Shown here one piece after another: positions 808 through 1,038 of a DNA stretch of 7,370 nucleotides. Each line of letters begins with the position of its first letter. Within the stretch, counting starts at the first letter, position 1. The stretch lies in the IMG/VR virus record IMGVR_UViG_2703718811_000008, positions 1-7,370 of that record. One strand, written 5' to 3'. Under the pieces are notes generated by a model, which had not been told where the DNA came from, ran no database searches, and saw only the letters and a program-made list of their open reading frames with translations. The translations under genes were made by a program, and so were the position numbers. The stretch comes from a virus. Taxonomy: Duplodnaviria > Heunggongvirae > Uroviricota > Caudoviricetes.

Positions 808-882
808 TGGAGCGGCCAGCGGGAATCGAACCCGCATCATCAGCTTGGAAGGCTGAGGTAATAGCCATTATACGATGACCGC
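808..882 (-). tRNA. tRNA-Gly (anticodon UCC), CCA encoded
   Basis: RC of 808-882 = GCGGTCATCGTATAATGGCTATTACCTCAGCCTTCCAAGCTGATGATGCGGGTTCGATTCCCGCTGGCCGCTCCA. Acceptor GCGGTCA/TGGCCGC, anticodon stem TCAGC/GCTGA with loop CTTCCAA, T-arm GCGGG-TTCGATT-CCCGC. Resembles phage-type (T4-like) tRNA-Gly from memory. Confidence 0.85.
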
Positions 883-883
883 A

Positions 884-960
884 TGGTGCGCCATACTGGA
901 TTCGAACCAGTGACCGATTGCTTAGAAGGCAATTGCTCTGTCCAACTGAGCTAACAGCGC
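884..960 (-). tRNA. tRNA-Arg (anticodon UCU, reads AGA), CCA encoded
   Basis: RC of 884-960 = GCGCTGTTAGCTCAGTTGGACAGAGCAATTGCCTTCTAAGCAATCGGTCACTGGTTCGAATCCAGTATGGCGCACCA. Canonical cloverleaf: D-arm GCTC/GAGC, anticodon stem ATTGC/GCAAT with loop CTTCTAA, T-arm ACTGG-TTCGAAT-CCAGT. Similar to but distinct from E. coli argU as recalled. Confidence 0.9.
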
Positions 961-964
961 TTCG

Positions 965-1038
965 TGCCCCTGCCATGTTTGAACCGGCGACCTGGCGGTT
1001 ATTAACCGCTCGCTCTGACCATTAGGGCTAAAGGGGCA
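965..1038 (-). tRNA. Degenerate tRNA-like element (possible pseudo-tRNA), no CCA encoded
   Basis: RC of 965-1038 = TGCCCCTTTAGCCCTAATGGTCAGAGCGAGCGGTTAATAACCGCCAGGTCGCCGGTTCAAACATGGCAGGGGCA. Perfect 7-bp acceptor-like stem TGCCCCT/AGGGGCA, T-loop-like GGTTCAAAC, anticodon-like loop TTAATAA (nominal AAU). But the D-stem has a mismatch, there are 3 nt between acceptor and D-stem, and the T-stem has a G-A pair. Sits 4 nt from tRNA-Arg. Confidence 0.35.

Follow-up and report, generated by a model that had tools for sequence, protein, structure and literature searches.

The region at positions 808 to 1038 of the window (the whole stretch of DNA that was analyzed, 7,370 nucleotides in length) is very probably the tRNA array of an Escherichia coli lambdoid prophage, which comprises an ileZ pseudogene, an argO-like tRNA-Arg, and a glyT-like tRNA-Gly. 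The degenerate unit, referred to below as the third element, would have no function of its own. The array and the antiterminator gene that precedes it are listed here.

808-882, minus strand: tRNA-Gly(UCC); called by ARAGORN (tcc); RF00005, 62.7 bits versus a gathering score of 29; CCA encoded; discriminator U
884-960, minus strand: tRNA-Arg(UCU), argO homolog; called by ARAGORN (tct); RF00005, 68.7 bits versus a gathering score of 29; CCA encoded
961-1038, minus strand: putative ileZ pseudogene (decayed tRNA-Ile2, ancestral anticodon CAU); assigned from RF00005, blastn, alignment, and a table of lesions
3516-3899, minus strand: antiterminator Q; Pfam PF06530 (Phage_antitermQ), E=7.3e-52

ARAGORN and Rfam delimit the block (808-1038, minus strand) as tRNA-Gly, tRNA-Arg, and the third element at 965-1037/1038. 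A single base (883) separates tRNA-Arg from tRNA-Gly, and 4 nt separate the third element from tRNA-Arg. An earlier note, made from the sequence alone, had described three closely packed tRNA-shaped units with these spacers, and the tRNA-Gly and tRNA-Arg calls, together with a match of the third element to RF00005 at relaxed thresholds, confirmed this description. The note had also likened the cluster to the arrays located downstream of Q on the late strand of Stx-type lambdoid phages. We indeed found Q upstream on the same strand, at ∼2.5 kb from the cluster; the two are, however, not adjacent. In two related loci (L001 and L014), a lysis cassette lies downstream of the cluster, as befits the late strand of a lambdoid prophage, and the counterpart of Q in L014, a locus 98.9% identical to the window, is annotated as an antiterminator Q family protein.

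tRNA-Gly(UCC) and tRNA-Arg(UCU)

The cmscan alignments and our reading of the sequence showed that tRNA-Gly and tRNA-Arg each have a complete cloverleaf, with all stems paired and the 3' CCA encoded, and we thus predict that both are functional genes. tRNA-Gly is identical to glyT of E. coli K-12 at 73 of 75 positions, the two differences converting the acceptor-stem pair G5-C68 into a U5-G68 wobble pair. The two genes are alike in anticodon, discriminator U, and CCA and differ in their surroundings, since glyT belongs to the thrU-tyrU-glyT-thrT-tufB operon of the host, whereas its counterpart in the window sits in a prophage. The tRNA-Gly of the window is a phage-captured copy of host glyT, and its exact allele was found in only 9 records.

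tRNA-Arg is identical at 69 to 71 of 77 positions to argO of phi345, phiP27, and a Stx2c phage. Its differences from argO in the acceptor stem keep the pairing (T4-A is replaced by C4-G, and two changes yield G-U wobble pairs), so that both tRNA-Arg and tRNA-Gly depart from argO and glyT, respectively, by pair-preserving changes only. Both genes are fully identical (77/77 and 75/75) to their equivalents in the prophage of E. coli SHP24 (locus L007), with which the third element is compared below.

Anatomy of the third element

The third element consists of a tRNA-like body at 965-1037, flanked by a remnant of the CCA and the spacer (961-964) and by T1038, which lengthens the acceptor helix in a shifted register. 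At relaxed thresholds, RF00005 matched 965-1037 on the minus strand from end to end (model positions 1-71) with 28.3 bits (E=2.4e-4 in a search of 161 bases), below the gathering score of 29. ARAGORN, which had been proposed as a check, called Gly(tcc) and Arg(tct) and skipped the third element, and the element carries no annotation in the four RefSeq/PGAP relatives examined. A score under the gathering threshold and the lack of a call by the tRNA finder both set it apart from functional tRNA genes.

The structural details point in the same direction. The acceptor helix is a perfect 7-bp helix when T1038 is counted as base 1; in the ancestral register, 6 of its 7 positions pair. The D arm has an enlarged loop and a C12-A23 mismatch in its stem. 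In the T stem, G53 is opposed by A61, and G52 forms a wobble pair with U62. The anticodon loop reads UUAAUAA, and CGA replaces CCA at the 3' end. The conserved core of tRNA is consequently disrupted at several points (G53-A61, A15-C48, C12-A23, the loss of 1 nt from the 3' acceptor strand, and CGA for CCA), and the 12-bp stack of acceptor stem and T arm is not preserved. The minimum free energy fold is no cloverleaf and retains just two helices, that of the acceptor and that of the anticodon arm. An additional mismatch in the anticodon stem, A27-C43, is also present in intact ileZ alleles and is therefore ancestral rather than a lesion. The RF00005 alignment and the comparison with intact copies show that the anatomy given in the earlier note (a perfect acceptor stem, unusual D arm and T stem, a TTAATAA loop, and no CCA) was accurate. 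With the third element, RefSeq genomes of E. coli contain a tRNA pseudogene that is left unannotated, and with 28.3 bits versus a threshold of 29, permissive tools could miscall it as a tRNA-Ile(AAU).

Relationship of the third element to ileZ

By blastn, the third element shares 81 to 89% identity (E values from 5e-9 to 5e-15) with genes annotated as ileZ or tRNA-Ile in Stx phages and in prophages of E. coli. In global alignments, it matched the ileZ gene of SHP24 at 66 of 79 positions, a Thr-like unit of the same prophage at 47 of 79, and argN at 43 of 81. Its place in the array is also that of ileZ, namely, first unit, upstream of the argO homolog and downstream of the methylase gene, of which a remnant persists. 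From homology and position together, we conclude that the third element is a decayed homolog of ileZ, the phage tRNA-Ile2 with anticodon CAU. Alignment to ileZ, argN, and argO of Stx phages, another check that had been suggested, placed the third element in the ileZ slot and the tRNA-Arg of the window in the argO slot. The earlier note had seen Gly(UCC), Arg(UCU), and an odd element as a set standing in place of ileZ-argN-argO; the Gly and Arg assignments stood, but the idea of a replacement did not, since the third element is itself an ileZ homolog and tRNA-Arg an argO homolog.

It is highly improbable that the element arose instead as a recombinant between ileZ and the Thr-like unit or as an att-site remnant, in which an integrating element would have left behind part of a duplicated tRNA. 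One MAFFT run did align it to the Thr-like unit, with which it has TGCC and TTAGCCC (5') and GGCA (3') in common, and the two units of SHP24 have a single counterpart in the window. Yet the match to ileZ extends over the whole length, 3' end included, and we rejected a chimera on the global pairwise scores given above. As for an integration scar, foreign DNA does adjoin the 5' end of the element, but the element is equivalent to a full-length tRNA, unlike the 3' half seen in att duplications, and neither an integrase nor a repeat partner lies beside it in the window; the scar was rejected on these grounds. The integrase remnant found near the array in E. coli MFDS1022581 (locus L005) is that prophage's own end, brought near by a deletion.

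The ileZ copy of SHP24 is intact (RF00005, 65.9 bits), and the decayed copy differs from it at 12 positions, in addition to indels. T12C creates the C-A mismatch in the D stem, and the D loop contains an extra base and G15A, through which the Levitt pair with C48 is lost. The anticodon loop is altered by C32U and by C34A, the latter of which abolishes the CAU anticodon. In tRNA-Ile2, C34 is normally converted to lysidine by TilS, so C34A also removes the substrate of this enzyme; a working ileZ has C34 within a CUCAUAA loop, which the third element lacks. C61A breaks the universal G53-C61 pair, and G59A and C62U are found nearby in the list of changes. At the 3' end, one base has been lost from the acceptor strand and CCA has become CGA. 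The G2C difference could instead be junction sequence.

Compared with ileZ of the 933W type, the third element also shows A31-U39 replaced by G31-C39, U51-A63 replaced by C51-G63, and A67 replaced by G. We considered compensatory evolution as an explanation and rejected it, because all of these changes already exist in the intact SHP24 allele; the pairs thus predate the decay and are uninformative on the evolution of the third element itself.

DNA upstream of the array

We then compared the SHP24 locus with the window by blastn. Homology stops at position 1728 of the window and resumes at nucleotide 3 of ileZ, which is base 1035 of the window, and the intervening segment has an edge that abuts or clips bases 1 and 2 of the former ileZ. 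The features upstream of the array are as follows.

1036-1727, no strand assigned: foreign segment of ∼690 bp, unrelated to the DNA that lies between methylase and ileZ in intact clusters (blastn, SHP24 locus versus the window)
1310-1657, plus strand: ORF of 115 aa inside this segment; RefSeq counterpart, 97-aa hypothetical protein WP_024217725
1708-1871, minus strand: DNA methyltransferase remnant, aa 71 to 120 of 349; tblastn of the SHP24 methylase, 82% over 50 aa, E=4e-23
2560-3378, minus strand: CPBP/Rce1-like intramembrane protease gene; Pfam PF02517, E=2e-18; PHROG 13291

The ORF at 1310-1657 had no match in Pfam or PHROG. In relatives of the window, RefSeq marks the methylase stretch as a partial DNA-methyltransferase pseudogene. 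The interval between Q and the tRNA cluster is thus occupied by the CPBP/Rce1-like gene, the methylase remnant, and the ORF on the opposite strand. The CPBP/Rce1-like gene directly follows Q, and L001, a close relative, has another Q gene and no CPBP/Rce1-like gene; the site just downstream of Q is a frequent position for morons in lambdoid phages.

Divergence of the third element between lineages

The full 601-nt stretch containing the third element was found in 9 of 5,426 complete E. coli genomes. A scan of viral contigs for the shared D-loop lesion recovered the element in three of them, all near-identical to the copy in the window, and a scan for the same lesion over one genome per species gave no match. 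The degenerate copies form two lineages, one made of near-identical copies and the other of MFDS1022581 and two relatives.

Within the first lineage, four complete genomes and one viral contig carry the third element in identical form, and the copies are near-identical throughout. Across its seven copies, the sole variable site in the three-unit cluster is C29A, which falls in the third element, while tRNA-Arg and tRNA-Gly are invariant. C29A, carried by JKHS016, L011, and L013, breaks a pair of the anticodon stem without compensation.

The MFDS1022581 lineage has the D-loop lesion and the upstream flank in common with the window, and it has kept a CUCAUAA loop; its acceptor stem retains 2 of 7 pairs and its T stem 2 of 5. 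This copy appears to have decayed independently after the shared D-loop lesion. Between the window and MFDS1022581, identity amounts to 73% in the third element, 85% in the 200-bp flanks, 92% in tRNA-Arg, and about 90% in tRNA-Gly. Between the window and SHP24, all of the differences in the three units are in the third element, with none in tRNA-Arg or tRNA-Gly. The element therefore diverges at least as much as the noncoding flanks and accumulates lineage-specific, uncompensated lesions next to conserved tRNA genes; for the small sample of three lineages at hand, this pattern reads as the signature of a pseudogene. Of the options offered in the earlier note, a decaying tRNA was borne out by the ileZ homology, the lesions, the lineage-specific decay, and the level of divergence, and a regulatory RNA or a processing signal gained no support, as the element diverges at least as much as its flanks and decays differently in each lineage.

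Both degenerate lineages carry the same upstream flank, and since they also share the D-loop lesion, the rearrangement and this lesion are older than their split. These two changes were likely the events that inactivated ileZ, and the remaining lesions are later and lineage specific. We propose that foreign DNA replaced most of the methylase gene and the ileZ leader, up to bases 1 and 2 of the tRNA, and that an insertion/substitution in the D loop arose in the common ancestor of all degenerate copies. Drift would then have added T12C, G15A, C32U, C34A, C61A, C62U, the deletion in the 3' acceptor strand, and the change of CCA to CGA.

Could the remnant serve as a processing module in cis? In such a scheme, a tRNA-like minihelix, made up of the intact acceptor helix and part of the T arm, would draw RNase P or RNase E and help to free or stabilize tRNA-Arg, or it would mark the 5' boundary of the precursor after loss of the leader. 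The perfect acceptor helix in the shifted register, the intact 4-bp anticodon stem, a folding z-score of -2.3, the distance of just 4 nt to tRNA-Arg, and the removal of the native upstream leader by the rearrangement would all suit this role. We nonetheless consider it quite unlikely. The MFDS1022581 lineage has lost the acceptor helix and the T stem, yet its tRNA-Arg and tRNA-Gly are still called; the stack of acceptor stem and T arm is shortened in the window copy and interrupted by the G53-A61 mismatch; and many prophage arrays have argO without such an element directly upstream. The identity of the element is below that of its neutral flanks, and intact ileZ has an equal z-score, so that the value of -2.3 reflects tRNA ancestry.

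Phage tRNAs are well known to be able to counter anticodon nucleases, and the element might thus be viewed as a noncanonical tRNA or decoy, whose loop with U32 and A34 evades or soaks up a tRNA-targeting nuclease or modification enzyme of the host, or else as a small regulatory RNA. Such a role would fit the full-length match to the tRNA model, only 0.7 bits short of the gathering score, and the concentration of anticodon-loop changes at positions 32 and 34. Several independent lesions at universally conserved positions make it scarcely credible: the pairs G53-C61 and G15-C48 (Levitt), the D stem, the 3' side of the acceptor, and CCA are all affected, and the C29A polymorphism adds another uncompensated break in a stem. 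Moreover, the sister lineage retains the CAU loop and has lost the stems, the element occurs in very few of the genomes searched, and neither ARAGORN nor PGAP calls it.

Of all features of the element, only the acceptor helix in its shifted register suggests that selection may have been retained. Its perfect pairing required a change on the 5' side (G2 to C, or the junction) and a single-base deletion on the 3' side, which could hint at past selection for the helix. That the degenerate ileZ is not inert, and survives as a tRNA-like RNA with a helix re-established following the loss of its own 5' end, which acts as a processing handle for tRNA-Arg or as a decoy for a tRNA-directed enzyme such as TilS or an anticodon nuclease, seems to us very unlikely; if this were true, the phage would have put a dead tRNA to new use as a structured RNA. 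We thus retain a pseudogene as the reading of the third element.

Expression and codon usage

Within the late transcription unit, the array is flanked by Q on one side and by a nanS-p-like esterase gene and lysis genes on the other. In L001 and L014, genes for the esterase, holin, lysozyme, and terminase come after the array. We expect tRNA-Arg and tRNA-Gly to be transcribed with the late operon upon antitermination by Q, possibly also from a local promoter; when the surroundings of the cluster and the DNA downstream of Q were scanned for promoters, matches were no more numerous than in shuffled sequence. Both tRNAs, whose CCA is encoded, would be released by RNase P and 3' trimming. The third element would most likely be cotranscribed and then degraded, once RNase P has cut it away in the course of maturing tRNA-Arg, which lies 4 nt further on.

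tRNA-Arg(UCU) would read AGA and possibly AGG, and tRNA-Gly(UCC) would read GGA and GGG. AGA and AGG together account for 12 to 22 per 1,000 codons in prophage genes (the window and L001, 99% identical to it) versus 2.5 in adjacent host genes, the host sample being four genes; the two codons are rare in the host and occur 3 to 6 times more often in the prophage genes. The use of GGA is not clearly raised. Codon-usage compensation is given as the accepted rationale for phage tRNAs in a passage of PMC7946995, and the excess of AGA and AGG fits this view. The ancestral third unit would have been ileZ, the AUA-reading tRNA-Ile2 (CAU) that heads the array in Stx-type phages. AUA still makes up 5 to 13 per 1,000 codons in prophage genes, and the loss of ileZ is therefore not explained by a lost demand.

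Two small RNA families were detected downstream of the array.

308-507, minus strand: STnc100 sRNA family; full-length Rfam match, 136.3 bits versus a gathering score of 47
249-308, plus strand: AgvB (anti-GcvB sRNA family); 56.6 bits, barely over the gathering score of 56

STnc100 follows tRNA-Gly on the minus strand at a distance of ∼300 nt and ends in the first strong intrinsic terminator past the tRNAs (340-317). It also follows the tRNA array in three other loci (L005, L006, and L007) and may be cotranscribed with the array or be its 3' product. AgvB is convergent with STnc100, the two ends meeting at base 308, and each has a terminator hairpin of its own (284-301 on the plus strand for AgvB and 340-317 on the minus strand for STnc100). 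In MFDS1022581, the tRNA block (L005, 2409-4986) is located between yccA and serT, in what extensive deletions have left of a prophage; this remnant contains an integrase fragment, a hypothetical ORF, the dead ileZ, tRNA-Arg, tRNA-Gly without CCA, STnc100, and a Lom fragment. The retention of the block in this remnant indicates that it outlasts the loss of most of the phage.

Comparison with related arrays

The array of SHP24 contains Ile(CAU), a Thr(UGU)-like unit, Arg(UCU), and Gly(UCC), the last two identical to those of the window. It is embedded between a methylase gene and STnc100, followed by a SASA/nanS-p-like esterase gene, and the downstream part of this arrangement is also that of the window. 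G31-C39, C51-G63, and G67 are lineage-specific features common to the SHP24 ileZ and the third element. In contrast to the window, SHP24 has its methylase gene in full and its ileZ intact, and it contains the extra Thr-like unit. This unit (L007, 1575-1650), located between ileZ and tRNA-Arg, is called by ARAGORN and scores 47 bits with RF00005; it ends in TCA rather than CCA, has no PGAP annotation, and may be another unit that is being lost. In E. coli M19, an array downstream of a Q gene (L008, 1499-1808) reads Ile(CAU)-Lys(UUU)-Thr(UGU)-Gly(UCC), of which PGAP annotates Ile and Gly only; it is an example of how units are exchanged as modules between lambdoid prophages.

Within the literature collection that was searched, the gene names ileZ, argN, and argO gave no match, and only general statements on the tRNAs of Stx phages were retrieved. 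Stx2 phages are described in one passage as carrying two tRNA-Arg genes and one tRNA-Met(ileZ) gene beside stx2a (PMC7946995). We compared the window with the ileZ-argN-argO array of Stx-converting phages of the 933W/Sakai type, using phi345, phiP27, and the Stx2c phage. In phiP27 (L002, 1575-1675) and the Stx2c phage (L003, 1582-1661), the DNA that separates ileZ from argO can be aligned to the phi345 argN and receives no ARAGORN call; judged from this alignment, it is a degenerate argN, and the decay of units recurs in this family of arrays.

Taken together, these comparisons depict the tRNA arrays of lambdoid prophages as modular and turning over, through capture from the host (glyT), shuffling among phages, and loss by rearrangement and drift (ileZ here and argN in phiP27 and Stx2c phages). 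The importance of this case beyond annotation is small. That Stx-type lambdoid phages carry tRNA arrays after Q was already well known, unit decay has precedent in the family, and the window contains a rare variant of such an array, about which little is new. The new, but minor, points are the combination of a dead ileZ with argO-like and glyT-like genes and a tRNA pseudogene that lacks RefSeq annotation.

The array of the window and that of Stx phages occupy the same late position, and the order of Q, DNA methylase, tRNAs, moron, nanS-p esterase, and lysis genes is common to both. Their first units, of ileZ lineage, match at 60 to 62 of 79 positions, their argO units are related as described above, and spacers of a few nucleotides separate the units in both. 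They differ in that ileZ is dead in the window, argN is absent, and a glyT-derived tRNA-Gly(UCC) has been added after argO. The methylase gene of the window is cut to a 50-aa remnant, with the foreign segment between this remnant and the array, and the array is followed by no stx genes, only by the STnc100 region and the esterase gene.
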